This document shows, piece after piece, positions 2,492 through 51,847 of a stretch of DNA of 64,000 nt; positions within the stretch are counted from its first letter, which is position 1; each line of letters begins with the position of its first letter. Position numbers and translations under genes: made by a program. A model generated the notes under the pieces. It saw only the letters and a program-made list of their open reading frames with translations, was not told where the DNA came from and searched no databases. The stretch is from an uncultured virus (IMG/VR IMGVR_UViG_2061766007_000502) (taxonomy: Duplodnaviria > Heunggongvirae > Uroviricota > Caudoviricetes), in the IMG/VR virus record IMGVR_UViG_2061766007_000502. One strand, 5' to 3'.

Positions 2492-2529
2492 TCAGCAAAT
2501 CATTGTTTTGAAAACTAATCATTTTATTA

Positions 2530-2561
2530 AAAAGGATGCTTTCATAAAGAAGCATCCTTTT
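2530..2561. terminator. Intrinsic terminator hairpin
   Basis: AAAAGGATGCTT / AAGCATCCTTTT stem with A and T tails, after the fibre gene. Confidence 0.8.
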
Positions 2562-2571
2562 GTTTTATTAA

Positions 2572-2579
2572 GATAAATA
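2572..2579 (+). promoter_or_regulatory. GATAAATA candidate late promoter
   Basis: Recurrent intergenic 8-mer, one base from the T4 late promoter TATAAATA; 23 nt before ATG 2603. Confidence 0.65.
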
Positions 2580-2602
2580 AAAAAATGTTTCAATGACTCA
2601 TA

Positions 2603-3727
2603 ATGATTTTAAATGAAGAGTATTTTGATGATATTGATATAACTGATGATGATATAAAAAACAATATTGATAATAATGTTATAACATCGAAACAACTTGA
2701 TTCATATCAGTACTATATCAATGTACGCACTATAGATAAACATATTAACAAGAAACTCAGTTATATCATTAGAAACAACCCATGTGTTTCCGATTGCTTA
2801 ACACTGAAATACTATATAGATGGGATTGATATTGAATATAATAATGAAAATGAAATTTCAAATGATGATAATAACTCATTTATAATAACATACGGAATCA
2901 ATGCGGATTTTAACTACAAATATTTCATGATGCTGCTAAAGAACATATTCAGCAGATTTAAAGATGTTGTATTCTGTATCGGATTCTATACAACATACCC
3001 TGTAATCAAAAATAACCCAAAATCTCATAATATTGCTGATATTACTGATGAACCGTCAATAGAAAATGTCAAACAAGTTATGGAAGTGCTTGAATTATTT
3101 AATATAAAATATGATTGGGACATTCTTCTTGCAGATTTCAATATGTCTGTAAACGGTCTATTCAAATAGTATCTGAAACATCATTATACAGGCTATAAGA
3201 GCAATATCATATTCGCCGGTGAAACAGAACCGACCCAGATGACTGATGACATTCTGTCTGAATTCAGTGAAGTGAAAGCAACTAACATACTAAGTGAATA
3301 TAATTCTTCATTGGTTTACAGAAGTTTTAATCCGGATGAAATAGATAACACAGATATAAGAAAACACATCACAGACAGTTGTAACGGAAACAAACCAAGA
3401 TTTTATATAGTAGTTTCAACAAGAGGTAAGACAAACTGTTTCATAACATTCTATGTATATTACTCAAGAATATGTAAAGTGTCTAATGGCAATACAGTAA
3501 GATACAAAGGCTGTAAACCTGTCAATTGCATGGTAATGCTCCTGATAACACATAGAATGAACATGAAATATATAGAAGATAGTTTCCGAATTTATGAGAA
3601 ACTCGGTTTCAATGTACCAGAACTCATCAGACAAGCATTGGATGCCATTCCGAATATATCAGGTCAATATGAATCTGTATATGTAAAACAAATGCTTGCA
3701 AATATTAAACAAAAATTCATAAAATGA
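2603..3727 (+). CDS. NEDYF-leader family protein 1 (hypothetical)
   Basis: Starts MILNEEYFDDIDITDDDI; ORFs 2603-3169 and 3239-3727 share a frame, joined by TAG 3167. Confidence 0.8.
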
Positions 3728-3734
3728 TAAATCT

Positions 3735-4955
3735 ATGATATATAAAATCATTAATGAAGATTATTTCAATGAGCTTGAATTGACTGATGATGATATATAG
3801 AGTCAGAGTGATAATGAACAATATAAAGAAACAGATATCAATGACTATCCGTTTTATATGATTATGCAAATTCTATCATCAGAAAAAGATTCATATTCAA
3901 GTCTCAGCAAAGCAGACATCAAGAAATTCAGTACACAATGCTATTATATTCTCAATAATATGCCGGATACTATGAGAGTCTCAAAACCAATTTATTATAA
4001 TTATCATTTTGAACAAGAATATGGTAGTGATATAGAAAGCATAAGCATTCCAGAAAGAGACGGAAGAGTTTCTATGGTTTTCGGCATTGATGGTCATTTC
4101 TTCAATTTCAAGCACTTTTGGATATTAATGAGTTTTCTGTTTAATTATAAAAATATCGAAGTATACAGAGTCATATTCAATGATGAACTAAGAGTTGATA
4201 TCCATTCTAATGCCTCATACTTTGACTATTGGAATTTTCATCACGGTTGTAATTCTTCATCATTTGAAGGACTGATAAATATGCTTAATTTCCTCAAAGT
4301 CAAATATGATTATGAAGAACTTTGTCAGAGATTCTACCAACCGATACAGAAGCTTTTTAAAAATTACATATAGAAAACAGGAAAAAAACTGACAATAATC
4401 GAAGGTGGTGATATAAAACCGAGTATGATAAAGAATAACTTGCATAACAAGTGTTGTTATATCACAGCAATAAATTCTATAAACTTGGGAATCAATGAAA
4501 TCTGTCACACTTGTAATGATTTTACTGAATGTGATATCAATGATAATATAAAACAACATATAAATGATGACAGCAATGGCAATATAGCCAAATGCAGTTA
4601 TGTTATATTATCAAGAAATCATAATATATATAGCTCTAAATTCATTATATATTTTACAAGAACATGTCAGTTCTTCAAAAAAAACAGTTCGGACAAATAC
4701 CCACATCATTATATCATAACAATCGAATTCCCAGTCAGCTATTTCGGTGATTTAGAAACATTTGCATACATTCTCCATACATTTGAAACGTTCGGAATAG
4801 ATTCTGATAAATTTCTGAATAATATATTTGCAAATTTACCTGTAAAATTATTAAGAAATGATTATATAAAACAAAATATCAAAGATAAAATACAGTTGTT
4901 AAGAGATGGTGACGCTCCCAGGTCCGAAGGACCATGGGCTTCAGTGCATCTTTGA
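3735..4955 (+). CDS. NEDYF-leader family protein 2; C-terminus supplied by the IS right end
   Basis: ATG 3735 gives MIYKIINEDYFNELELTDDDI; in frame with ORFs 3858 and 4425 via TAGs; paralogous to protein 1. Confidence 0.8.
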
Positions 4956-4990
4956 CTCAGGAGATGTCTCCTGAGTCTGTTTCCTCTAAC
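4889..4990 (-). ncRNA. 3' part of TnpB reRNA (scaffold hairpins plus flank-derived guide)
   Basis: Hairpin GACTCAGGAGA/TCTCCTGAGTC over the stop codon, terminal GGTCC-TTCG hairpin, TCAC end; predicted guide CATCTCTTAACAACTGTATT (4908-4889). Confidence 0.6.
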
Positions 4991-6645
4991 GGCCTACTGT
5001 CATCTATGTTGCTGTCAGCGGAATCGCTGAACAGCAGATGCAGTCCTTCGTCAAAGTCCGCACGCTTAAATTCGGCTCCGTCCAAGCCTATGCGTTCTTT
5101 TAAATGGTTGAACAGCCAGACCATATCTTTTGCGGAGTGTGCATCGCGCTCTCCGTCATTGAAACCACAATTGGGACAAACATACACTCTGTCTTTNNNN
5201 NNNNNNCGCATCACGCTCTCCGTCATTGAAACCACAATTGGGACAAACATACACTCTGTCTTTNNNNNNNNNNCAATTTCTTATATTCACGCTTGATCAA
5301 GTTCAGTGTTCTGCACATGTTGTTTGAGGTTTTAATATTCTTCCGATTCTTCTTTTTCCGGTCCCAGCCGGCAGCTTTAAGCTGACGGTTGTATTTCTTC
5401 TGAAGTTTCTTCAGACGCTCAGTTTCTTCAACCTGNNNNNNNNNNTTGGCGGTTGTATTTCTTCTGAAGTTTCTTCAGACGCTCAGTTTCTTCAACCTGT
5501 GCATTGTACACTTTTCCGTTTGCATCAGTTGCAGTCTTCAGGCAACCCATGTCAAGTGCGTTTATCTCATAGACGGGAAGATTGTTCCCGTCTTTCTTGT
5601 TCTTGTTCCAGTTCTTCTTAGATTCTTTGTAAGACAGCCACGTTTCTTTATCAACATATACAGTCTGTTTGATGTAGTAGTTGTCTCCGCAGTGCGTCAG
5701 CTTTGCTGCCGACATCTCATAAACAATTTTGAGTTTATCAAGATTTCTCAGTTGCCGTATACCGGCAACACGTATTTCACAATCAAAACCCTATATCTGA
5801 TAAGAATTGTTCCCGACAATGCGATGTGTGACTCCGTATTGCTTTAAGCCGACGGCAGTGCAGTCGGATTTGTATTTCAGTCTTCCGATTTTGAAACCTT
5901 TGTTCTTGCGTGCTTTCAAAGCACGCATTTCATCTTTGACTTGGGAAATCACACTGTCTCTCATACTACTACCAAGATGTGTGATATTATCCGTTACAAT
6001 CTTCTTGTCTTTGTCCATATGTTCAACAACGTTGAACTCTTTCTGNNNNNNNNNNTGTTTCTTTATCAACATATACAGTCTGTTTGATGTAGTAGTTGTC
6101 TCCGCAATGCGTCAGCTTTGCTGACGACATCTCATAAACAATTTCGAGTTTATCAAGATTTCTCAGTTGCCGTATGCCGGCAACACGTATTTCACAATCA
6201 AAACCCTATATCTGATAAGAATTGTTNNNNNNNNNNNNNNNNNNNNNNNNNNNNNNNNNNNNNNNNNNNNNNNNNNNNNNNNNNNNNNNNNNNNNNNNNN
6301 NNNNNNNNNNNNNNNNNNNNNNNNNNNNNNNNNNNNNNNNNNNNNNNNNNNNNNNNNNNNNNNNNNNNNNNNNNNNNNNNNNNNNNNNNNNNNNNNNNNN
6401 NNNNNNNNNNNTGTGAAACTCGTGACTTTTCTTCCGGTTGAGTTCATCTGACTCAACATGGAATTCTTAATCCATTTGCCTTCGACAAAGACCATCTTCA
6501 GATGGTCAAATACTTTATTCTTACGGTTTCTTTTCTCATTGTGTACTTTAAATACAAAAGTCAATGGCATCTGAGACTTACGTCTCTCCATTGTCTGGAG
6601 ATACGTTTGCTTTATTCTCATATTTTTCTGCTCTTGTAATGTCAT
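4957..6645 (-). CDS. tnpB: TnpB RNA-guided endonuclease (assembly scrambled and gapped)
   Basis: N-term MTLQEQKN...ERRKSQ, RuvC-I INALDMG, ERLKKLQKK helix, Zn finger CPNCG, RuvC-III RDAHSA; in-frame TAG at 5791-5793. RuvC-II is not visible (probably in a gap). Confidence 0.85.
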
Positions 6646-6672
6646 ATTTAAAGTACACATACTGACTTTTAT

Positions 6673-6680
6673 TATTTATC
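6673..6680 (-). promoter_or_regulatory. GATAAATA candidate late promoter upstream of tnpB
   Basis: Same motif as before structural genes, ~30 nt upstream of the tnpB start. Confidence 0.6.
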
Positions 6681-6777
6681 TAAGTTCTTGACATAAATTT
6701 TCAATTTCTGTCTATATAATTATTAAGAATGTGATATAACAATAAATATTAAATAAATAATTAGTGTGGCAATTCAT

Positions 6778-8011
6778 ATGACGAGCTGTAAAAGCATTAA
6801 TGTACTGAATGAAGACTATTTCGATGACATTGAGATAACCGACAAAGACATTCAAAGCACAGCAGATAATACAGATATTACATTAACTGCTGAGACTGAA
6901 CATATATATAACCATGATATTATAATACCTTTACCATATGATAGAAAATTATATAGGTATAATGCAGAAAAATATATGCTTATATTAAAGCATAGANNNN
7001 NNNNNNNNNNNNNNNNNNNNNTGACAAATATGAAATACAATTCAAATGGGGTTATCATTCATTCCCGTATGATTTTAAAAGATATGATGTCGGTAACGGT
7101 ATAATATGGTGGGGATATAAGGACTATATAGAAGATAGCAAATCTCCGGAAGATTAGTATAATTCTATAAAAGACAATAGTCTTGGATACTACAGGCTTG
7201 ANNNNNNNNNNNNNNNNNNNNNNATATAAAAGATATACATAAACTGCTGTTAAGTTTCATAAACGCATTTGGCTATTTCACTCATTTGGAATTCAAATAT
7301 AGTGCTTTTAGTTATATAACTATGAGCAATGAAATAACATCATCTCTGCTTGCAAATTTCATCCGATATAAGAAGACGAATGGAAATTTACAGAAGATAT
7401 GGAACACAGTAGATTATTTTGTGATATTATATTTCTATAAGTTCATCAAACAATTCATACCGCATTATGGTATCAGTAAATTAAGAGACTATCTTGAAGT
7501 CAATGATTTGAAATATCATATAAGAACTTACTCAACAACATATAAGACAGTCTACTATGAGCATATTGACTATGGCTATGATATCAACAAGTTTCTTGAT
7601 GTAGTAGAACATACTGACAATTCATTATGGCAGTACTATGATTTAAGTAACGGCACTCGTTCATCGATGCCAAATTGCAAATCAGATTTAATAAAAGACT
7701 ATTTATACAAGAGAACACCCGGTGTCAATGTGTACTTGATAAGACGAAAGCCGTCTAATAATTTATATGTTTATTATTACTTTGACGAGACATTTTCTAA
7801 AGATGATGGCATCGTTGAATATGATTTACTTTGGACACATTATGTAGATAATATAAATGATATAATCAAACTGTTCACTCCAATGTACTACATAGGATGT
7901 GATGTTAAAAAAGCAATCATATCAACAAAGAAAATCAAAGACGATTTCAACGGCTATTATATTCTCGATAAAATGAATATGAATACTATTCTATCTGAAA
8001 TTAAAAATTAA
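6778..8011 (+). CDS. NEDYF-leader family protein 3 (two N gaps)
   Basis: MTSCKSINVLNEDYFDDIEITDKDI; frame changes only at N gaps; TAA at 8011. Confidence 0.7.
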
Positions 8012-8022
8012 AACAAATATCA

Positions 8023-9267
8023 ATGCCGATGAGTAATCATATTTTAAAATATATCAATGAGGACTATTTCAATGATATTGAAATAACAGATGATGACATA
8101 GAGACTCAATATCCAGTAGTGAACATAACTGAAGAAACAGATTATTCTGTCATTTTTCAATTATCAATACCATATAATTATCCATTCATCTATAACCTGC
8201 TTGATGATTTAGTCAGTAAAATCACAAAACTGATAAAAATTATAGAATATTATATGAGAAACTGTGATGCATTCACCAGAATCGGAAATATTGATATAGT
8301 TTTATCATCACACTTCAATAAAGTCAAGAACTATGGCAATTACTGTGTATTCTATGATGATAATGAAAGAAGTCTATCGAATGCATATATAGAAGCACAT
8401 TGCAACTATTTATTTACACAACCCAATGATTTGTCATTACTCCTGATGTCTGCTTTTGTCAAATTCCATAAGTTGAGCAATATAGGCTGTCATAGTGTTA
8501 TATTGAAAAATAAGACTTTAGATAGACAAATAAAATTCAAAGCAGGAACAGAAAACATATTCAAAACACCAAATGACAACAAACAACCTTTAATCTGGAG
8601 AGAATATACAAATAACATATATGTAATGATAAATTATTTTGAGATGTCATTACCGGGTTTCTATGGAAAGTGCCTGAAAAAATACGGCAACAACAATGAC
8701 GCTATCAATTATCCTTCTGACTTCAATAAGTGTGCTTATCATGGTGACAGATACAGAGTAAAGCATTTAAGAAAACTTCCGAAATTTAATTACATACAAA
8801 TCGTGCAATTCGGATCTGGAAGTGATATGATGGCATTCAAGTCAGAATCTGGAACATTTCAAGATGATATTATCGAATGTCCAAACTGGTCTGACATTAC
8901 ACTACCGAATTTCAAAGAAGAGTGTCATAAGATTATACAGATGTACTATCAACAACAAAGAGATTTTGTAATGCTTGTTAATTCTTATGCTGAAAAAACA
9001 ATCAACATAACATATGTCCTTGATGGAACATATATCTTAGATGGTGATGAATATGTGATTGAGTTTGTTAATGTACCACTATCAGACGAACCTGATAAAC
9101 TTATATATAACAATGCAGTGTCAATCAATATGATGATTCAGACCGGTTTATATGATCTTGATTCTGCAATGAACGAATATATGAATATATATACTCCTAT
9201 GTCAGAAGCAGAAGCAGAACCGGTCAGATAGAAATACATTGAATGTTTTGTTAAAAGAGAGAGTTGA
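8023..9267 (+). CDS. NEDYF-leader family protein 4
   Basis: ILKYINEDYFNDIEITDDDI; TAG 9229 read through to TGA 9265-9267. Confidence 0.8.
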
Positions 9268-9269
9268 TA

Positions 9270-10244
9270 TCATACTCTCTCTTTTATGATTAACAATCTC
9301 TTGAACTTGCATTTCCCGTTTATAATCGGTTTGGCAAAGTCATAGTTCTGTCCGTTTCCTGAGTTCAACTGACCTATTATACTGAACAACAGAATGTTTC
9401 CGTTTTCATCCTTGAACTCACATAACTTATCTTTATTCAGTTTGTCTATGACTGTAATCGGCACTCCCATTACTGCATCATAATCAACTGGTATCTCTTT
9501 CATGGTATTCACGTTAATTGCATCATATGTATCGAATTTACTATATGATTCCGGACTGTACTTAGCAGTTAGCACCGTATGCCTGACTTCAGGATGCTGA
9601 TAATCCATATTGGTGAACCAGCGGACACCCTTAACCCTTATGAACTTGGTCCCATCATCTGCAGTCCTGCATGCAATGCCATCAAGGGGATAGTCATCTG
9701 GCACTCTGAACTCTCTATCTCCGCTGTGTATAGAACCGCCCAAAGTTATCTTGTGTGATATTATATGCTGAAAGACCTCTCTATAAGTCACGGCATTTAT
9801 ATTACCAAGAATTATGTACAGAATGTTAGTTTTGTTGAGCAAATCTATAAACTCCCTGAAAAGTGAGAACGGTGGATTAGTAACTACAATATCAGATTCG
9901 CTTAAAATGCTCTTACACTCGTCAGAACGAAAATCACCGTTAGATTTCATCTGTACAGTCTCTTCAGAGTCATTCTCTATTATAGTCATTGAACCATAAT
10001 CTTCTCTGTTAAAACATGTTGCAATTAGTTTCTTCAATCCGAAATTAGTGAAATTATCCTTGAAATATTTGAAGAAATTACTTGTATTCGAATCATCACA
10101 CGGACAATACACAACCTTATCCTTGAAATCTGACTTATATAGTGACATTTCTGATGCAATGTCTTCATATGCAGTATAAAATTCATCAGCCTTGTTCTTG
10201 CGTGCTGATGTCAAATCTGTATTGTTCTGTTCAAAATTCTTCAT
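9270..10244 (-). CDS. Adenine-specific DNA methyltransferase, EcoRI-methylase family (orphan)
   Basis: KxDEFYT, VVYCPCDD, GDFRSDEC, IVVTNPPFSLFREF, VRWFTN and GVPIT motifs. Confidence 0.9.
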   Translation of the reverse strand: MKNFEQNNTDLTSARKNKADEFYTAYEDIASEMSLYKSDFKDKVVYCPCDDSNTSNFFKYFKDNFTNFGLKKLIATCFNREDYGSMTIIENDSEETVQMKSNGDFRSDECKSILSESDIVVTNPPFSLFREFIDLLNKTNILYIILGNINAVTYREVFQHIISHKITLGGSIHSGDREFRVPDDYPLDGIACRTADDGTKFIRVKGVRWFTNMDYQHPEVRHTVLTAKYSPESYSKFDTYDAINVNTMKEIPVDYDAVMGVPITVIDKLNKDKLCEFKDENGNILLFSIIGQLNSGNGQNYDFAKPIINGKCKFKRLLIIKERV

Positions 10245-22162: not shown

Positions 22163-22308
22163 TGTCAAAATGAAATGTCCATTTATATTGTATTTATTTT
22201 GCCTATGTTGAAAAGTACGGAAAAGAAAGTATTTTTTTGATTTTTGGACAAAATTACTTGAAAAATACAATAAATAAATTAAATTATAAAACTCAAAAAA
22301 TCAAACAG

Positions 22309-25114
22309 ATGGCAAGAAGAGGACCTATACCGAAGAGAGATACGAGAGTGCTTAGAGATGATAAGTCCAATTACTTGGACAAAGAACTTGAAGCACAGAA
22401 ACGCTCAAAGGTTTACAATACATAGATAATTAATGATATAATAAAGAATCTCGGAGATCCGAAAGCAGATATGATGCCGTTCTTCCACGGAAAGACTGCA
22501 TGGAGAAACTCTGATATTGCATTTGAGTACACACAGGAAGAATGGGAGATACTGCAGAGATGTGCAGAAGATCCGATATACTTCATAGAGAACTACTGTA
22601 CGTTCCTGACAGACTACGGAAGAAAGACAGTGAATCTCAGACCTTATCAGAAAGACGTCATTCACCTTATGTGTGACGAGCATTATTCAGAAGAATATGA
22701 ATTGATGCTTCCTGACAACCGAAGAGTCGTTCTGCTTTAGAGCAGACAGACAGGAAAATGTGTTGATTGTAACACAACAGTGAAGATTTTGGGAAGCTAT
22801 GCATATAATACTATAAAGAACACTAACAGAAAGAAATACAGTCTTTTCAGAATATTATATCAGAAACTAAAAAACGGATTATAGGATATTCTGATAAGCA
22901 ATGAAGCATCATAGAGTGATATAGTAAGTTCTGAGATAGAAGATAATTACGAATATTCTATACCTTTCTATGAAATCTATTATAGCAGTATTAAAACACC
23001 GACACTTAGAGACTATATAACATACAAGTTATATAGACATAACAAGTATAGTATATTCAATACTTTTATCTTAATTCTTGATAAGATTAAGTACAGAAAG
23101 ACCAATAACAATAATAAGATTATAGAGTCTTTAAGTCCTATTGTTGACATAAGACTCAAGTCTAAGAATTGCTATACCGCTGTTACTGATATTCACAGGA
23201 CCAAATAGTTCACGGAATATATTATAGAACTAAAAGATGGCAGTAAGTTGAGTTGTGCTGATGAGCATCTGTTATTTGCATCAGACCTTCATGCTGATGG
23301 CTGGACTCATATCAAAGATATCCGTCCGGACTTCTTTGTGTATACAGAAAACGGCTGGCAGAAAGTCATATCCGTAAAGAAGAAGAACAGAAAGACTTTT
23401 ATGGGAGATTTGACTGTAAGTGATGAATCACATTCATACTACACTAACGGCATGCTGTCTCATAACACTACTACCACTGCTGCTGTATTCACATGGTATC
23501 TCACGTTCCATACTGACAAGAATGCCATGGTAGTGGCAAACAAGGGTGACACTGCAGAAGAGATTATCGGAAAGATGACAGACGTATTCAAGGGACTGCC
23601 GTATTTCTTGAAACCCGGTGTCGTATCAGTTGCCCAGGATGCTATAAGATTTGAGAATGGATGTTCACTCAGATGTTCGGCAACAGGTGATTCTCCAGCG
23701 ACTGGTGACACCATACATATGCTGATGATCGATGAGTGTGCTCTTATTCCGGCAAACAAGATTGGACCTTTCTGGAGATCTGTGTTCCCTACCCTGTCTT
23801 CATCAGTCCTGTCATAGATTATAGTCCTGTCAACTCCACGCGGAAGACACAATCTTTATTATGACATATACAGCGGAGCAGTTAACGGAACAAACGGTTT
23901 CAAATACAAAAGAGTGGATTATTGGGAAGTCCCCGGACATGATACTGAAGAGTGGAAACAGGAACAGGTATCTGCTTTCGGTGAAGCGTTTTTCAATTAG
24001 GAGTTTGGACTTTCATTTGATTCCGACCAAAGTAAACTGATTGGTCCGAAAGACTTGCAGTTCTTCAACAAGATAAAGAAAGAGTTTGTGCCTGTTGAAA
24101 TCTACGGCATTCCATATAATGTGTCTTCGAAGATATTATGGCATCCGGATTTCCATCCGGACAGTCTTACTGTTAATGATTTGCTGACAAGAAAGTTCTT
24201 ATTGCAAATTGATACAGCAGAGGGAAAGGAAAAGGGAGAAAAGGGACAGGAAGACTCTGATTATAATGTAATCAATATATACGAGATAGAGTTTTTGTCA
24301 CCGGCACGTATTAGAAAGAATAGATGCGGATACAAGAAAGTATCGACTATGGATTGTATAAGATTCAGACAGATTGGTATTTACATGGATTAGGATTTTG
24401 ATGAAGAGCATTGTGCGGATGCTGCACAACATATAGCATTCACATTGCTGAAGAATGGTGTTCAGTATCAGGATTATGATATTGACAACTGCCGTATAAT
24501 GCTTGAAGTCAATTTCAATGGTGCTAACTGGATTAAGACTTTCAAGACTCATGACTTATTCTACCCTAATTTGATTCTGAAGACATTCCATTCACAGANN
24601 NNNNNNNNGTTTCAGACTTTCCGGCGGTGAGCACGGTAAGGGTTACTATTGTGAAGCAGGAGCAAAATTGATTTCAAAAAGACAGATTATTATTTCCCAT
24701 GATAGTCCTACTCCAGTATTGAGTTCGATTCAGTAGCTGGAAGCATTCGGAAAGACTAAGACCGGAAAATACGAAGGCAGTTGTATTCATGATGATATCT
24801 CAATGACTATCCTGATGCCAAGCATAGTTATAGAATGTGAAGAGTTCATTATGTGGATTGATGACTGGTTGGAATTTCTGCCATATATGGAAATAAATGA
24901 TATTGTCAAAAATAAGCTGATTATGATTTCAAGATTTCTTGAGACGTTTGTTGTAGAGAGTACAGAAGAGGAAGAATATTCAAATGAGGAATATATGAGA
25001 ATGGTAGCATCTTCAACAAGCGGATTCAACGGTTATGGTACAATGGGACAGATACCGTACCAATATCCGACATATAATAGCGGCTATGGTACAGGAAATG
25101 TGTATCCGCATTGA
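22309..25114 (+). CDS. terL: Terminase large subunit (T4 gp17-like) with intein
   Basis: DPIYFIENY, LRPYQ, Walker A SRQTGK-[intein]-TT, Walker B MLMIDEC, STPRG, FN(TAG)EF, IDTAEG, HDDI. At least nine in-frame TAGs; one N gap. Confidence 0.93.
22759..23466 (+). other. Cis mini-intein (236 aa) in the TerL Walker A motif
   Basis: Starts CVDCNTTV after GK, block B SCADEH, ends NGMLSHN before T; no endonuclease motifs; three TAG codons. Confidence 0.9.
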
Positions 25115-47480: not shown

Positions 47481-48539
47481 ATGGAAGAAATCGAATTTAA
47501 ATACAGTCATCTTAAAGATCCCGAGAATTGTCCGATAGAAGAACTTGCAAAACAAGTCAGTGAACTTGAAGCACTTGTCGGTTTCTACGACACTAAGCAG
47601 CTTGCTATCAAGAAGTTCATTAATTCCGTATATGGTGCTCTTGGTAGTAAGTACTTTGTTGCTCATAATACGGCAATAGCAGAAAGTATTACGGCACAAG
47701 GACGTGATTTGAATCATTTCTCTGAGAATAGTGTGAACAGATATTTCAAAGGATTGTTTCAGAGTAATCCGACTATCACGCTGTACTATCAATGGGTGCA
47801 TCATACTGATGAAGGTGAGAGATTCACTTTCGAGAAGCCGGATAAGCCGGCTGACTATTACAATAACGGAAAATGGGAAGAGTGTGAGAACTGGAGACCT
47901 GCTGTCAAGAAAGGAAAGAAACTGACGGCTGATATGAAAGAATGTCTTAGAGACAATTCTGTCGGTCATTGTGACTGGTTTATGACAAGTGTTGATTTGT
48001 TCACTAAGCTCGGACTTGTCGGTGAACAGCGTGAGAAAGCAAAGAACTTCGATATCTCAAAGGGTATGACTAATGACTACGGAGAATTGACAGGTGCTGA
48101 GTTCAATTATCTTGAAGGAACGAGGTCTATGGTAGTAGGTGGTGATACTGATTCAGTGTCAGCAGACAGTAACATAAAGATTTCATATAGTGACACCGGC
48201 AGCAAGAAAGACATTAAGGTATGTGATTTGTTCACTGAACTCAAATATAACAACAACGACTGTGTTATAATAACCGGTAATGGTTCTGAAGTAGTGCCAG
48301 TGAAAGATATATGTGCTCAGACATATAGTACAGAAAAGGATAAAGTCATATTCCGACCTGTTAATTATATAATGAGACATAAGGTTAAGAAGTCACGTTT
48401 CAGGATAACAACTGAGTCTGGCAAGCAGATTATTGTGACTGGTGATCATTCTTGTATGGTAGTCAGAGACAATGAACTGATTTCAGTAAAGGCTAAAGAT
48501 ATAAAGATGAGTGATAAAATCATAACAGTTGATAATTGA
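47481..48539 (+). CDS. polB: Family-B DNA polymerase fragment (motif B to motif C) fused to N-intein
   Basis: KQLAIKKFINSVYG, AESITAQGR, GGDTD followed by intein SVSADS...VTGDHS; true TGA stop. Confidence 0.92.
   Translation: MEEIEFKYSHLKDPENCPIEELAKQVSELEALVGFYDTKQLAIKKFINSVYGALGSKYFVAHNTAIAESITAQGRDLNHFSENSVNRYFKGLFQSNPTITLYYQWVHHTDEGERFTFEKPDKPADYYNNGKWEECENWRPAVKKGKKLTADMKECLRDNSVGHCDWFMTSVDLFTKLGLVGEQREKAKNFDISKGMTNDYGELTGAEFNYLEGTRSMVVGGDTDSVSADSNIKISYSDTGSKKDIKVCDLFTELKYNNNDCVIITGNGSEVVPVKDICAQTYSTEKDKVIFRPVNYIMRHKVKKSRFRITTESGKQIIVTGDHSCMVVRDNELISVKAKDIKMSDKIITVDN
48153..48536 (+). other. Split intein N-fragment (128 aa, Ser1)
   Basis: Block A SVSADS and block B TGDH; no terminal HN. 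Confidence 0.9.
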
Positions 48540-48936: not shown

Positions 48937-49910
48937 ATGGTTATGGATTTCAAAGAAACAAACTATAAGATTGAGAGTATTGCCGCAATAGAGCAGATTG
49001 AAGATTTCGATGAGGAGTATGTATATGACTTGGAAATTGATGATACTCATATGTTCTTTGCTAATGACATACTTGTTCATAATTCCATATATGTCGAGTT
49101 TGGACGAATTTGTAGATATTGTAATGTAGAGGCGGAAAAGCAACCGAAGTTCTGTGTAGATTTATGGAATTACTCACTCGGACCTTATATGGATCATTGC
49201 TATGAGGAGTATGCAGAGAAATTCAACTGTCCTAAGAATTTGCAGAATCTGGAACTTGAGAAACTTTCTGATGTGACTATGTATTTTGCAAAGAAAAGAT
49301 ATGCAATGTCAGAGTGCTGGAAGGAACCTAATATATATCTGCCTTATATGTCTAAAGTGTTGTATAAGGGTATTGAGATTGTAAAGGGTTCTACATCTAC
49401 ATATGCACGCGAGTGTATGGATGATTTCTGCCGTTTCATTCTCAAGTGGTACAGCACGCATGACAATCCTATTGCATATGAGGAAGTTATGAAGAAACTC
49501 AAGAGTTATAAAAATTTGTTCATGACAAAACCACCGGAGGATATATGCGGCGGTTCATCTGTGGGTGACTATGAGAAATTCATTCTCTCAGACAAGACAA
49601 AATTCGTAATCGGTGACAAATGTCCGGCTCATATCAGAGCGGCAGGNNNNNNNNNNNNNNNNNNNNNNNNNNNNNNNNNNNNNNNNNNNNNNNNNCTGCT
49701 GATAAGATAAAATGGTATTATACTAAGGATTCTAACTTGGAGGTGTTTGCTTTCCTTCCTGGCTCATATCCGGGTGAGTTTGCTCCGGCAATGGATATGG
49801 ATGTACAGTTTGAGAAAACTATTCTGTCATTCTGTAATAAAGTAGTCGGAGATATTCTCGGTTATCCGACATTGACATCATCTCTTTGTTATTCTGAAGC
49901 ATTGTTTTAA
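48937..49910 (+). CDS. polB: C-intein (49 aa) fused to the family-B polymerase C-terminal part
   Basis: YVYDLEI..THMFFANDILVHN then SIYV, LELEK, AKKRY, KGIEIV, HIRAA, DKIKWYY; one N gap. Confidence 0.92.
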
Positions 49911-51847
49911 ATGGATAAGAAATATTTTGATTTAAGTGTGAGTCCGGGTGATGACTTTTTCAAGTTCTGCTGTGGGAACTGGGTTAAGTATCATCCACAG
50001 CCGAATGATTACCCAAGTTGGAATGTGTTCACCGTCATAGAAGAGAACAACATCAATAAACTGAAATCAATCATAGATGAATTGTCACAAGATGATATGA
50101 TGCAGAAGAAGATGATTGATTATTGGAATCTGATGAGAGACTATGACAGACGCAACAGAGACAGGTTTGCTCCGCTGAAGCCATATATAGACCGTCTTGA
50201 AGAGTTGAGCACTAAAGACGACATCTTGGAATTCATGATAAGCGATATGTCGGTGTCATTCGGAATATCTGTTCTTCTCGGACCTGATATGAAGAACTCT
50301 AAGATGAACGAAGTGATATTCACTCAGTCGCTTCCGCTTGATAACAGAGAATACTATTTGTCAGATGATGAGCGTAATAAGAGTATTATTGCAAAATACA
50401 AGGACGTCTCGATAAATGTTCTTACTGCATGCGGTTATCCAAAAGATCAAGCAAAAGACATCATAGATGTGTTTGTAGATTTCAATACTGAACTGGCATA
50501 TGACTGTTATGATATGGAAGACTTGAATAAGCCGGAATTGAACTATCATAAGATGTCTGTTGATGAATTGAGTGCTTTATGTAATTATGATATAAGGAAA
50601 TTTCTCTCATGGCATGGTATGAATGAGACTGATACGGTCATAGTGGAACAGACAGAAGCAATAGTCAAGTTCTTCAGTCTCATTAATAATATGACATTGG
50701 ATGAACTCAGAGAATGTGTGATGTTTGTAATCATTGATGACTGCTGTTGCGCTCTGAGTGAAGATTTCGGAAATATTCTGTTTGAGTTCACCAAATTCAT
50801 GACAGGGGCGATAGCCCGTCCTGACAAATGGAAACGTGAGGTTAATAAAATGAACTCTGTTTTCAGTGAGCAAATCGGCAAGTTATATGCAGAGAAGTTC
50901 TTCAGCGGTGAGTCTAAGCCTAAGATGATAGAAATCATCAAAAACATAATATCATCTTTTAGGGAAATCATAGATACACAGTCATGGATGTCTTATTCTA
51001 CAAAGAAGATAGCAATAGAGAAACTTGATTCTATGACATACAAAGTCGGTTATCCGGAAAAATGGGAAGACTATTCTGACATACCAGTTGAACCTGAGAA
51101 ATCATATCTTGAGAATTGTCTTGCTATATCTAAGTACTATCATAGGAGATTTCTGGAAAAAAATTACAACAAGCCGGTTGACTATGACGAGTGGCCTATG
51201 CTTCCGCAGAGTGTCAATGCCTGTTATATGCCGACAAGGAATGAGTTTTGTTTTCCGTGTGGTATATTAGTGGAACCGTTCTTTGATGTCAATGCTGATA
51301 TGGCAATGAACTATGGCGGTATAGGTNNNNNNNNNNNNCACATGGTTTTGATTCAAGCGGAAGGCAATTCACTAAAGATGGTAATATAGAAGACTGGTGG
51401 ACTGCTTCGGATGCTGAGAATTTCAATAAGCAGACTGAGAATACTGTAAAGAGATTCGACAGTCTGTATGTGCTTCCTGACTTGAAATGCAATGCAGAAC
51501 TGACTAAAGATGAGAATATAGCAGATTACGGCGGTCTCAATATAGCATATAATGCATTGGACAAATATATGTGGGATAAGAAGGACATTGATGATGAGTA
51601 TAACTACAAACAGAGGTTCTTTATATCATTTGCCACTATATGGGCAGGAGTATGTACGGATATGCTTATAAGGCAAAACACAATGAACGGCACACACAGC
51701 ATGAACTTCATGAGAGTGAACGGCACGGTTCCTATGATGGATGAATGGTATGAATCATTCGGTATCAAGGAAGACAGCAAACTGTATGTCAAACCGGAAG
51801 ACCGGGGAAGAATTTGGAACAGATATAAATTTTTTAAAATAGTATAA
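49911..51847 (+). CDS. pepO: M13-family zinc endopeptidase (PepO/neprilysin-like)
   Basis: PGDDFF, VGYPE, VNACY, NYGGIG, HGFD, ENIAD, RVNG; the first part of HExxH is lost in a gap. Confidence 0.9.

Follow-up and report, generated by a model that had tools for sequence, protein, structure and literature searches.

A transposase-less IS200/IS605-family element in a TAG-recoded rumen phage, with a TnpB that appears tailored to phage life

The presence of a tnpB gene in a phage genome raises the question of what an RNA-guided nuclease gene may do there, in particular if it is interrupted by an in-frame stop codon and preceded by a sequence resembling the phage's own promoters. TnpB, the ancestor of Cas12, acts as a transposon-retention nuclease in bacteria, and the classic selfish nucleases of lytic phages are homing endonucleases; to our knowledge, the behaviour of TnpB in lytic phages has been little explored. 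The gene in question lies in a 64-kb stretch of DNA from an uncultured member of the Caudoviricetes, which was analysed as a whole and is called the window here. An earlier note on this DNA had proposed that the TAG codon acts in concert with a late promoter as an evolved timing device, by which full-length nuclease is made only late in infection in suppressing cells, serving homing or exclusion between co-infecting phages and staying inert in a standard-code host.

The host of the element is a cattle-gut (rumen) phage which reads TAG as glutamine, the identity of the amino acid having been tested at the TnpB columns only. The longest stop-to-stop frames in the window grow from 1818 to 4401 nt once TAG is treated as a sense codon. 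An ORF of 1460 codons contains seven in-frame TAGs and the terminase gene eight, while none occur in the replication genes (SbcCD and DNA polymerase pieces), which is the pattern of a recoded phage, with many in-frame TAGs in conserved genes and few in those for replication. In the TAG-bearing genes of this phage, TAG accounts for a share of 0.05-0.26 of the Gln-type codons. No tRNA genes were found in the 64-kb window, and hence no suppressor tRNA there, and none with a CTA anticodon turned up in 18 related loci, each representing a part of a genome; a measure of stop-to-stop coverage did not separate the standard from the recoded code in these short loci.

The element itself occupies positions 4909-6787 on the minus strand, reaching further than the end at 6700 given in the earlier note, and is a non-autonomous, tnpB-only member of the IS200/IS605 family that has been badly scaffolded. 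As scaffolded, the tnpB coding sequence runs from 6645 to 4957 on the minus strand. As judged from an alignment to a full-length relative of 475 residues (P0001) and eight other homologs, and from the joints visible in contigs assembled from individual sequencing runs, the true gene consists of the pieces 6645-6412, 6045-5446, 5435-5274 (overlapping the preceding piece) and 5196-4957. The region 6046..6411 is a scaffolding artefact, composed of N runs and a 171-nt piece (6056-6226) that stems from another copy of the element with slight differences; in contigs of the runs X1, X3 and X4, position 6045 is joined directly to 6412, and the protein alignment continues unbroken across the join. About 84 codons, including the RuvC-II motif and the first CxxC pair, are absent from the window, with gaps at 5197-5273, and the loose ends of X3 and X20 contigs carry the tnpB frame on into this missing part. 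The 393 visible codons are open with the exception of the TAG. Note that the run-contig comparison covered positions 5274-9300 and that X4 and X20 cover only parts of this stretch, their uncovered parts saying nothing on absence.

Such an assembly invites the suspicion that an element from another genome of the sample was mis-scaffolded into the phage. The source sample contains at least two copies of the element, 1.9 kb are crowded with five N gaps along with duplicated pieces and one piece of a foreign variant, and the GC content of the element (41%) differs from that of its flanks (about 30%). A chimera is nevertheless extremely unlikely, since an independently built X1 contig of 343 nt, which starts within the element (6654) and ends in the phage gene (6996), shows 0 differences, and since both the promoter-like box and the TAG described below fit the usage of this phage.

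The site of insertion is framed by two plus-strand ORFs. The upstream part of the interrupted phage gene (3735..4908), identified from the ORF list, belongs to a paralog family sharing the N-terminal motif LNEDYFDDIEI and, as scaffolded, extends by 15 codons into the right end of the element (to 4955). The downstream ORF (6788..6996), also taken from the ORF list and belonging to the same paralog family, is in frame with an ATG at 6778 inside the left end. The element is inserted within, or at the end of, a gene from a fast-evolving paralog family. As tnpB lies antisense to this gene and a re-spelled duplicate of the gene end is absent, a layout with a spare gene end was considered and dropped. 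Positions 4908 and 6788 are frame-compatible, so that precise excision would leave a single open frame; as such an agreement is expected by chance in one of three cases, it may serve as weak evidence. No relatives of the interrupted gene were found in viral_contigs, a 25-nt word from the left flank had no match there, and blastn of positions 2500-9300 against phage records gave no match; no empty allele was found in these searches.

The left end is present as a remnant (6684..6787, minus strand), which was recognized by comparison with left ends of the clade. It keeps the 3' arms of a long hairpin (approximately 6766-6787), but neither the 5' arms nor the outermost approximately 24 nt, while X3 and X4 contigs and a second X1 contig run on at 6793/6795 into a full left end. 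This truncation, which was not part of the earlier description, means that TnpA-type excision of the window copy is probably no longer possible. A search by tblastn with the clade's own TnpA (E at most 1e-3) detected no tnpA in the 64-kb window, which agrees with the earlier statement that tnpB has no transposase partner here. The window copy may accordingly be a stranded relic, a reading which is weighed below together with the state of the gene.

The broken gene is hard to recognize by itself. None of its four ORF pieces gave a Pfam or PHROGs match below E 0.01, and the C-terminal piece alone reaches PF07282 only at E 0.17; its identity was therefore taken from full-length relatives. The pieces tile P0001 at 76-89% identity, with 89% over a piece of 200 residues. 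P0001 passes the zinc-finger/TNB profile PF07282 (30.9 bits, cut-off 26.3) and stays below the cut-off of the OrfB_IS605 profile PF01385 (20.0 versus 30.5 bits), which P0011 and P0012, two distant relatives, exceed with 40-41 bits. Profile matches to solved TnpB structures reached 1.6e-20 for 8iaz and 7e-6 for ISDra2. An AlphaFold model, built of P0001 as an 89% relative rather than of the broken gene of the window (pLDDT 92.8, pTM 0.86), retrieved by Foldseek the ISFba1 structure 8iaz (E 1.1e-18, TM 0.66 on the target) and ISDra2 8h1j (1.6e-13), followed by Cas12f and Fanzor2, and thus predicts a TnpB-like fold for the whole protein. Taken together, the presence of a genuine tnpB gene in a phage reading TAG as Gln is well supported.

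The residues D243, C385, C388, C404 and D415 are invariant across 79 relatives. The corresponding residues of the window align with D243 and D415, which bears out the earlier observation of intact RuvC-I and RuvC-III aspartates, and the second CxxC pair is visible as well. The RuvC-II motif, whose loss would have counted against the earlier proposal, is a more complex case: the stretch is present in the relatives, but falls into the gap of the window, and the position of its canonical glutamate is occupied by glutamine throughout the family (invariant Q339), forming a QDE motif that was not part of the earlier note. In HMMER alignments, Q339 takes the position held by Glu in 8iaz and 9yyg, and in the P0001 model the strand 333-339 is predicted to terminate at this residue; D340 and E341 are conserved in at least 90% of the relatives. 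QDE-type motifs recur in 77 of 80 bacterial loci (the best 80 of 136) and in 44 of 56 distant viral ones. With a Gln at the canonical Glu site and RuvC-II itself missing from the window, nuclease activity is less certain than for a textbook TnpB. A related situation has been described for the RIIr branches of TnpB, which have a rearranged RuvC-II and some of which are mostly viral (Altae-Tran et al. 2023, PMC10691335). As far as comparable from the description in that paper, both share the replacement of the canonical Glu and the conservation of a nearby acidic residue; the main RIIr example has Gly in place of Glu and uses a Glu on a loop instead, whereas the clade has Gln, with a Glu two residues on.

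In a view on the distribution of the family, close relatives (51-89% identity) were found only in viral (IMG/VR) or metagenome contigs, one of them 673 kb in size, whereas the best 80 of 136 relatives in bacterial and archaeal genomes reach at most 39% identity, a distribution resting on one genome per species and on the viral calls of IMG/VR. No close copy, and so none of the identical TAG-containing copies in bacterial chromosomes that had been considered as counter-evidence, was found in these genomes. A single gene piece as query retrieved no relative from viral_contigs, and P0001 alone had no match in metagenome_contigs, where the clade alignment succeeded as query. Ratios of dN/dS between 0.09 and 0.23 in eight within-subfamily pairs show that tnpB is under purifying selection in the clade. 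A Y1 transposase gene (Y1_Tnp, PF01797, 1.6e-20) adjoins tnpB in four loci (L001, L139, L149 and L150). The tnpA of L001 contains a TGA at a conserved Trp codon; a reading of TGA as Trp was considered there, but L139 and L150 have TGG at this position, which makes a nonsense change the simpler explanation.

These data bear on the reading of the window copy as a stranded relic, i.e., an insertion sequence that lost its left end after insertion, is now immobile and persists solely because it is nearly harmless, with TnpB and its RNA having no present role. The left end is indeed cut off at an internal TTTAC, tnpA is missing from the window, and other copies of the clade are decaying, as seen from the early TGA codons ending tnpB in L140 and L159 and from the TGA in tnpA of L001. 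We regard this reading as improbable, because the visible codons are open apart from the TAG, the catalytic aspartates, the second CxxC pair and the stems of the omegaRNA are intact, and dN/dS is low in the clade. Moreover, the X3 and X4 copies show 98-99% identity, which suggests an element that is either young or constrained, and retention by TnpB would be independent of TnpA.

The in-frame TAG is located at 5791..5793 (minus strand, SYQI*GF) and recurs at 6206-6208 in the duplicated piece, so that it is indeed present in both assembled variants, and it precedes RuvC-I and with it all catalytic motifs, as previously noted. Its reading as Gln follows from the alignment column, which holds Q in all 17 non-TAG sequences of the clade; a second TAG column of the clade holds Q in 11 of 12. 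The codon is retained in contigs of X3, X4 and X20, which derive from one RNA run and two DNA runs independent of each other, with the listed differences all lying elsewhere, and a TAG occurs at the identical column in L002. This constancy over three further data sets, the recurrence in L002 and the position ahead of the catalytic motifs would fit a timing device, as would the lack of close copies among the best 80 of the 136 relatives in bacterial genomes. A comparable idea has been published for a group I intron endonuclease in a TGA-recoded phage, whose in-frame stops were proposed to delay production until late (Borges et al., 10.1101/2021.08.26.457843). However, 11 of 24 clade loci (many of them partial) have no in-frame TAG, and the positions of TAG otherwise vary between the copies. 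Several of them fall within a stem of the omegaRNA, where RNA pairing rather than protein timing may fix the letters. In the tnpB of the window, TAG represents one of 16 Gln-type codons, a share like that of other TAG-bearing genes of this phage. The variable positions, which go beyond the earlier note, and the TAG-free loci make the codon resemble drift under the phage code, and not the conserved, purposeful switch of the earlier proposal. It is explained most simply as a CAG-to-TAG change that is tolerated under this code.

The second component of the proposed timing device is the promoter-like box TTAGATAAATA (6673..6683, minus strand), which was defined from enrichment and conservation and contains the core GATAAATA at 6673-6680. 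The core stands 27 nt before the conserved ATG of tnpB (6645) and 12 nt before the first ATG (6660), confirming its reported position about 30 nt upstream of the gene. The 27-nt leader between box and conserved start (6646..6672, minus strand), as read by inspection of aligned upstream sequences, holds a short hairpin with a stem that varies in sequence from one subfamily to the next. In the window, GATAAATA occurs 17 times versus 7.4 expected, a number reached in 0 of 100 shuffles, and 12-13 of these 17 sites are followed, at a distance of 6-35 nt, by the start of a same-strand ORF. The core precedes about 12 genes belonging to the phage itself at the spacing seen for tnpB. The box is part of the element and was present in all 19 close-clade loci with upstream sequence, so that the possibility of a non-conserved motif outside the element, raised earlier as an objection, does not apply; among distant relatives, it was seen in 2 of 53 viral and 2 of 73 bacterial loci. 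Its distance to tnpB is constant also in loci in which tnpA is situated between left end and box, and in L146, L155 and L159 the box stands at equal spacing before further genes of the flanks.

The box may work like a late promoter, but the T4-type late-promoter consensus TATAAATA, which is recognized by gp55 in T4, is not enriched in the window (10 versus 8.8 expected). Late timing is suggested by boxes before genes for tail-tube-like, tail-fibre-like and endolysin-like proteins; as the box also precedes TAG-free genes, it need not mark a late class. Expression is indicated by a single set of metatranscriptome contigs, which may reflect DNA carry-over. In view of the scattered TAG positions, the ordinary TAG share and the missing T4 consensus, an evolved timing device made up of TAG and late promoter appears unlikely, in spite of the conserved box.

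Beyond its coding function, the 3' part of the gene seems to contribute to a guide RNA. The candidate omegaRNA scaffold (4909..5091, minus strand) consists of the last approximately 135 nt of the tnpB coding sequence and a 48-nt non-coding right end, and it terminates with the clade-wide sequence GGAGCGTCAC, which finishes at 4909. The coding portion accounts for a C-terminal extension of 45-60 residues in the clade proteins. A common multi-stem fold was found in 12 copies. Over nine relatives, 87.9% of the cells of the alignment are paired, compared to 34-46% in slid controls, and none of 500 shuffles reached the score; eight pairs show compensatory changes, and the covariation value is 0.242 against at most 0.077 in the slid controls. 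The structure used in these counts came from one of the sequences counted, and a third stem-loop was excluded because the alignment is shifted there. RNAalifold on MAFFT alignments recovered one or few stems only, as the subfamilies are out of register, and single-sequence folds with a named structure were used instead. Comparison of L001, L143 and L153 with the Rfam families gave no match.

Immediately past the terminus, the flanks of 13 loci and of the window are unrelated. In ISDra2, the guide of the omegaRNA lies next to the right-end terminus, and by analogy the guide template of the window copy is predicted at 4889..4908 (minus strand), directly adjoining the terminus. This stretch runs antisense to the final codons of the interrupted phage gene and, allowing for up to three mismatches, occurs only once in the window. 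At the other end, TTTAC (6788..6792, minus strand) adjoins the truncated left end as candidate TAM and insertion target. In the clade, the left end is immediately preceded by TTAC in 12 loci and by ATAC in four, the boundary being the point where similarity stops, within about 2 nt. Near-identical copies have their left ends after TTAC in differing contexts, showing that the clade has inserted at multiple sites. The clade elements have a subterminal hairpin at either end and a short 5' target, of which the window copy retains the right-end hairpin and TTTAC.

An immobile element with an intact-looking gene and a phage-type box might also be regarded as a domesticated tool, with TnpB and omegaRNA serving the phage, e.g., by cutting or binding DNA of competitors or of the host, and domesticated TnpB relatives encoded by phages (TldR) have been published. 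This alternative is very improbable here: the predicted guide position holds ordinary flank DNA without a second match in the window, the catalytic aspartates are retained, the sister copies are plainly mobile, and there is no conserved partner gene.

The account which we favour, and consider fairly probable, is that of a phage-resident, tnpB-only IS200/IS605 lineage which is transcribed from the phage-type box, depends on the reading of TAG, and is retained or spread by omegaRNA-guided cutting, with the TAG being tolerated rather than selected. The elements of this lineage are arranged in the order TTAC or TTTAC, long-hairpin left end, (in some) a divergent Y1 tnpA, box, tnpB, and omegaRNA up to the fixed right-end terminus, and their box GATAAATA, about 25-35 nt before tnpB, is identical to that before many genes of the host phages. 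TnpB would be made by phage-directed transcription from this box. Full-length protein requires TAG to be read as Gln, and would hence appear only after the phage code has taken effect. The omegaRNA would copy its guide from the flank, from 4908 downward, and the complex would cut TTTAC-adjacent copies of the flank sequence, i.e., genomes free of the insertion. Such cutting would favour retention of the element, or its copying via recombination between co-infecting phages. The lineage therefore looks tailored to phage life in its sequence features, with cutting and spread remaining putative.

A more far-reaching version sees the whole IS605/TnpB lineage as parasitic on TAG-recoded rumen phages, having taken over the phage box and accumulating TAG codons. 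As TAG sense codons leave the nuclease untranslatable in a standard-code host, the code would then act as a containment wall that keeps an RNA-guided homing drive out of bacterial genomes. We consider this possible, but rather doubtful.

The IS608 element of Helicobacter pylori inserts 3' of TTAC, and the clade shares with it the TTAC-type target at the left end and the subterminal hairpins at both ends, while host range, end sequences and TnpB subfamily differ. Solved structures used for comparison were 8exa, 8h1j and 8iaz of the ISDra2/ISFba1 type. Common to these systems and the clade are the full-length fold, the RuvC-I and RuvC-III aspartates, the four-Cys zinc finger, a structured RNA from the 3' end of the gene to the right end, a short TAM preceding the left end, and Y1 TnpA in autonomous members. 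In contrast, the clade proteins are only 8-18% identical to the solved TnpBs, have Gln at the RuvC-II Glu followed by the conserved Asp-Glu, and carry the C-terminal extension from the omegaRNA region; furthermore, the close clade was found only in viral or metagenome contigs, has the phage-type box and TAG sense codons, and the window copy is devoid of tnpA and has kept only half of its left end.

A homing role for TnpB of IS200/IS605 elements has been described (Meers et al., PMC10055086). The case of Borges et al. resembles the clade in that the gene of a selfish nuclease is carried by a recoded phage, but concerns a protein-guided group I intron endonuclease and TGA instead of an RNA-guided transposon nuclease and TAG; the terms "TnpB", "transposase" and "transposon" have 0 occurrences each in the available text of that preprint. 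Archaeal TnpB and IscB proteins with in-frame TAG codons read as pyrrolysine, usually mis-annotated as fragments, have been reported in another preprint (10.1101/2024.09.30.615893). They share the sense TAG under an altered code, but are encoded on archaeal chromosomes and contain pyrrolysine, with no capture of a promoter described in the accessible portion of the source, whereas the clade resides in phages and uses Gln.

The present findings define a compact, phage-adapted TnpB lineage with a candidate TAM (TTAC/TTTAC), a defined omegaRNA and a defined box, which makes it a testable case. Standard-code gene finders split or miss nucleases of this kind bearing TAG codons. If active, the family-wide Gln-Asp-Glu version of RuvC-II would represent one more variant of this catalytic site occurring in nature, and recoding may partition mobile elements between phages and their hosts.

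The tnpB element at 4909-6787, on the minus strand, has a GC content of ~41%, above that of the rest of the window (~33% overall), a scaffold interrupted by 25 runs of N. It appears there as four minus-strand ORF pieces with N runs between them, none of which matched a Pfam or PHROG family when searched singly. Searching with a 200-residue piece retrieved 12 longer relatives, and the best of these (P0001, 475 aa, 89% identity) is tiled in order by the window pieces: 6645-6412 (-) meets 6045-5446 (-) without loss, 5435-5274 (-) overlaps with the preceding piece, and ~84 residues have no counterpart between 5274 and 5196 (-). Contigs from three public sequencing runs join 5382/5385 to 5447/5450 and 6045 to 6412, and the interval 6046-6411, which contains a 171-nt fragment from a second, slightly different element copy, is therefore a scaffolding artefact. 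The tnpB frame is carried on into the missing part by loose contig ends of run X3 and of the RNA run X20.

P0001 scores above the cut-off of PF07282 and below that of PF01385, while a profile of nine relatives matches the solved TnpBs of ISFba1 (8iaz, 1.6e-20) and ISDra2 (7e-6). The AlphaFold model of P0001, computed with 79 relatives as input (pLDDT 92.8), has 8iaz, 8h1j, Cas12f and Fanzor2 at the top of its Foldseek ranking. Among the 79 relatives, D243, D415 and three zinc-finger Cys never vary, and the fourth Cys is conserved in at least 90%; the window gene contains the second CxxC and both Asp, so that the RuvC-I and RuvC-III aspartates noted earlier are indeed intact. As to the RuvC-II Glu, none is visible in the window, where the stretch is missing, and in the relatives it appears displaced and non-canonical: the usual position is occupied family-wide by an invariant Gln, followed by Asp-Glu, with a strand predicted to terminate at this Gln in the P0001 model. 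The window gene is a TnpB, of a family with an unusual RuvC-II position. Other TnpB branches with rearranged RuvC-II sites are described in PMC10691335, some of them being called mostly viral.

The phage reads TAG as a sense codon, as judged from its longest frames, which grow from 1.8 to 4.4 kb once TAG is read through, and from in-frame TAGs in the large terminase subunit (22237-24630, +; eight), a 1460-aa ORF (seven) and further genes; none occur in SbcCD, in the DNA polymerase pieces or in some other genes. The terminase also has an insert, just ahead of the ATPase domain, with weak similarity to an intein-splicing family (PF14890, 6.2e-5, under the cut-off). The tnpB TAG at 5791-5793 fits Gln, which occupies this column in all 17 non-TAG clade sequences and all nine database homologs, and the codon is covered by contigs from X3, X4 and X20, whose differences (tallying with the per-piece counts) all fall elsewhere. 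TAG accounts for 1 of 16 Gln-type codons among the 393 tnpB codons seen, the fraction being 0.05-0.26 in the other TAG-bearing genes of the phage. No tRNA genes were found in the 64-kb window, nor any tRNA with a CTA anticodon in the 18 related loci scanned; one locus (L158, 3986-4412) has three tRNA-Gly and one tRNA-Trp clustered ~2.5 kb from the element.

The earlier note asked whether all copies carry the TAG: only 13 of 24 clade loci carry one in frame, at differing positions, in columns that are Gln in some cases and variable, Glu or Asn in others. One variable column ~20-30 codons before the tnpB stop is TAG in five copies from three subfamilies (L002, L142, L145, L148 and L152) and lies inside a palindromic stem of the omegaRNA, where RNA pairing may favour the TAG letters. 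Distant viral relatives also contain in-frame TAGs (L038, five; L005, one), and since L039 and L040 have 11 each and an adjoining Y1 tnpA, other phages therefore harbour whole IS605 elements under TAG recoding.

The promoter-like box GATAAATA occurs 17 times in the window, 7.4 being expected, and 12-13 of these sites lie 6-35 nt (mostly 23-35) upstream of an ATG that begins a same-strand ORF of 86 codons or more. A longer form, TTAGATAAATA, is common to six sites including that of tnpB, where 27 nt separate the box from the conserved start (6645). Genes preceded by the box include a tail-tube-like, an S74-type tail-fibre-like and an endolysin-like one, and also functionally unassigned genes without TAG; in L146, L155 and L159 it stands at equal spacing before other genes that flank the element. 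All 19 close-clade loci with at least 60 nt of upstream sequence have the box, as against only 2 of 53 distant viral relatives and 2 of 73 bacterial ones. Where a tnpA separates the left end from tnpB (L001, L139, L150), it keeps its place beside tnpB, which argues that it behaves as an expression signal and not as a transposon end. The T4 late consensus, TATAAATA, is not enriched in the window, and the late timing proposed previously is therefore inferred.

Relatives more than 50% identical were found in 22 metagenome loci and in two IMG/VR contigs, of which one measures 673 kb. Near-identical copies in bacterial chromosomes, which would have spoken against phage adaptation, did not appear among the 136 prokaryotic relatives from a scan of one genome per species, the best 80 of which are at most 39% identical, most of them being multi-copy and from MAGs of Synergistaceae and Spirochaetales. 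The right-end terminus GGAGCGTCAC is present in all 13 clade loci reaching the 3' end (one copy ends with T instead of C), and the flanks beyond are unrelated between these loci. In folding, the last 130-185 nt form one stem set in 12 copies; the named structure is 87.9% paired on nine relatives, compared with 34-46% after sliding, and shows eight compensatory pairs, one of which joins the third base of a Gly codon to the first base of a Ser/Thr/Ala codon. By these features, the 3'-end RNA of the clade looks as an omegaRNA should. The left end forms a long hairpin whose arms covary; TTAC stands before it in 12 loci and ATAC in four. Divergent Y1 tnpA genes are found in L001 (PF01797, 1.6e-20), L139, L149 and L150. 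That of L001 (~5540-5550, -) is broken just before the catalytic Tyr motif by a TGA, probably a nonsense mutation, at a conserved Trp codon (TGG in L139 and L150), and this element's right end lies directly against the C-terminal portion of an AAA_21/AbiEii-type ATPase gene (7410-7766, +), the insertion therefore having split a defence-like gene. The tnpB genes of L140 and L159 halt at TGA after ~217 codons where relatives read on, and look like decaying copies; dN/dS is 0.09-0.23 within subfamilies.

The element is inserted within an array of at least seven paralogous genes (at 2603, 3735, 6778, 8023, 10677, 13511 and 30796, +) of ~370-440 codons each, which share an LNEDYFDDIEI-like N-terminal motif, match no Pfam or PHROG family, and have conserved 5' DNA that attracted cross-matching run contigs. 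A complete left end past 6793/6795 is present in X3, X4 and a second contig of run X1. A 343-nt X1 contig confirms the window version instead, in which TTTAC, located in the hairpin loop of the full form, directly abuts the phage gene; the 5' arms of this hairpin are thus absent from the window copy. Contig depth is 7.5 and 11.4 at the two left-end forms and 14-19 over the body they share, which suggests two element copies in the source sample and would account for the broken scaffold. Positions 4908 and 6788 are frame-compatible by coordinate arithmetic, so precise excision might conceivably leave a single open frame over two paralog units. Neither the flanking gene nor a 25-nt left-flank word matched any sequence in viral_contigs, and no empty allele was found. 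In X3, the element is ~99% and the right flank 91.5-98.3% identical, which hints at spread of the element between strains. Elsewhere, DNA polymerase matches fall into two TAG-free ORFs ~400 nt apart (47481-48539 and 48937-49710, +), a split that may reflect a break in the assembly or a mobile insertion between them. The phage also encodes a full-length M13-family peptidase (49911-51449, +; PF05649, 1.3e-87).

The literature, covered mostly outside subscription journals, yielded no paper on TAG recoding of phage TnpBs or on promoter capture. Phage-borne TnpBs are described in a cyanophage preprint, Pyl-containing TnpBs in archaea (10.1101/2024.09.30.615893), and a delayed-endonuclease idea has been proposed for a recoded intron endonuclease (10.1101/2021.08.26.457843). 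That the TAG and a late promoter together form a timing switch for tnpB, and that the TnpB acts in homing, remain hypotheses. The adaptation of TnpB to the phage is supported: the element is real and well-defined, and while IS605 TnpBs are a known kind, the phage-adapted form is new.
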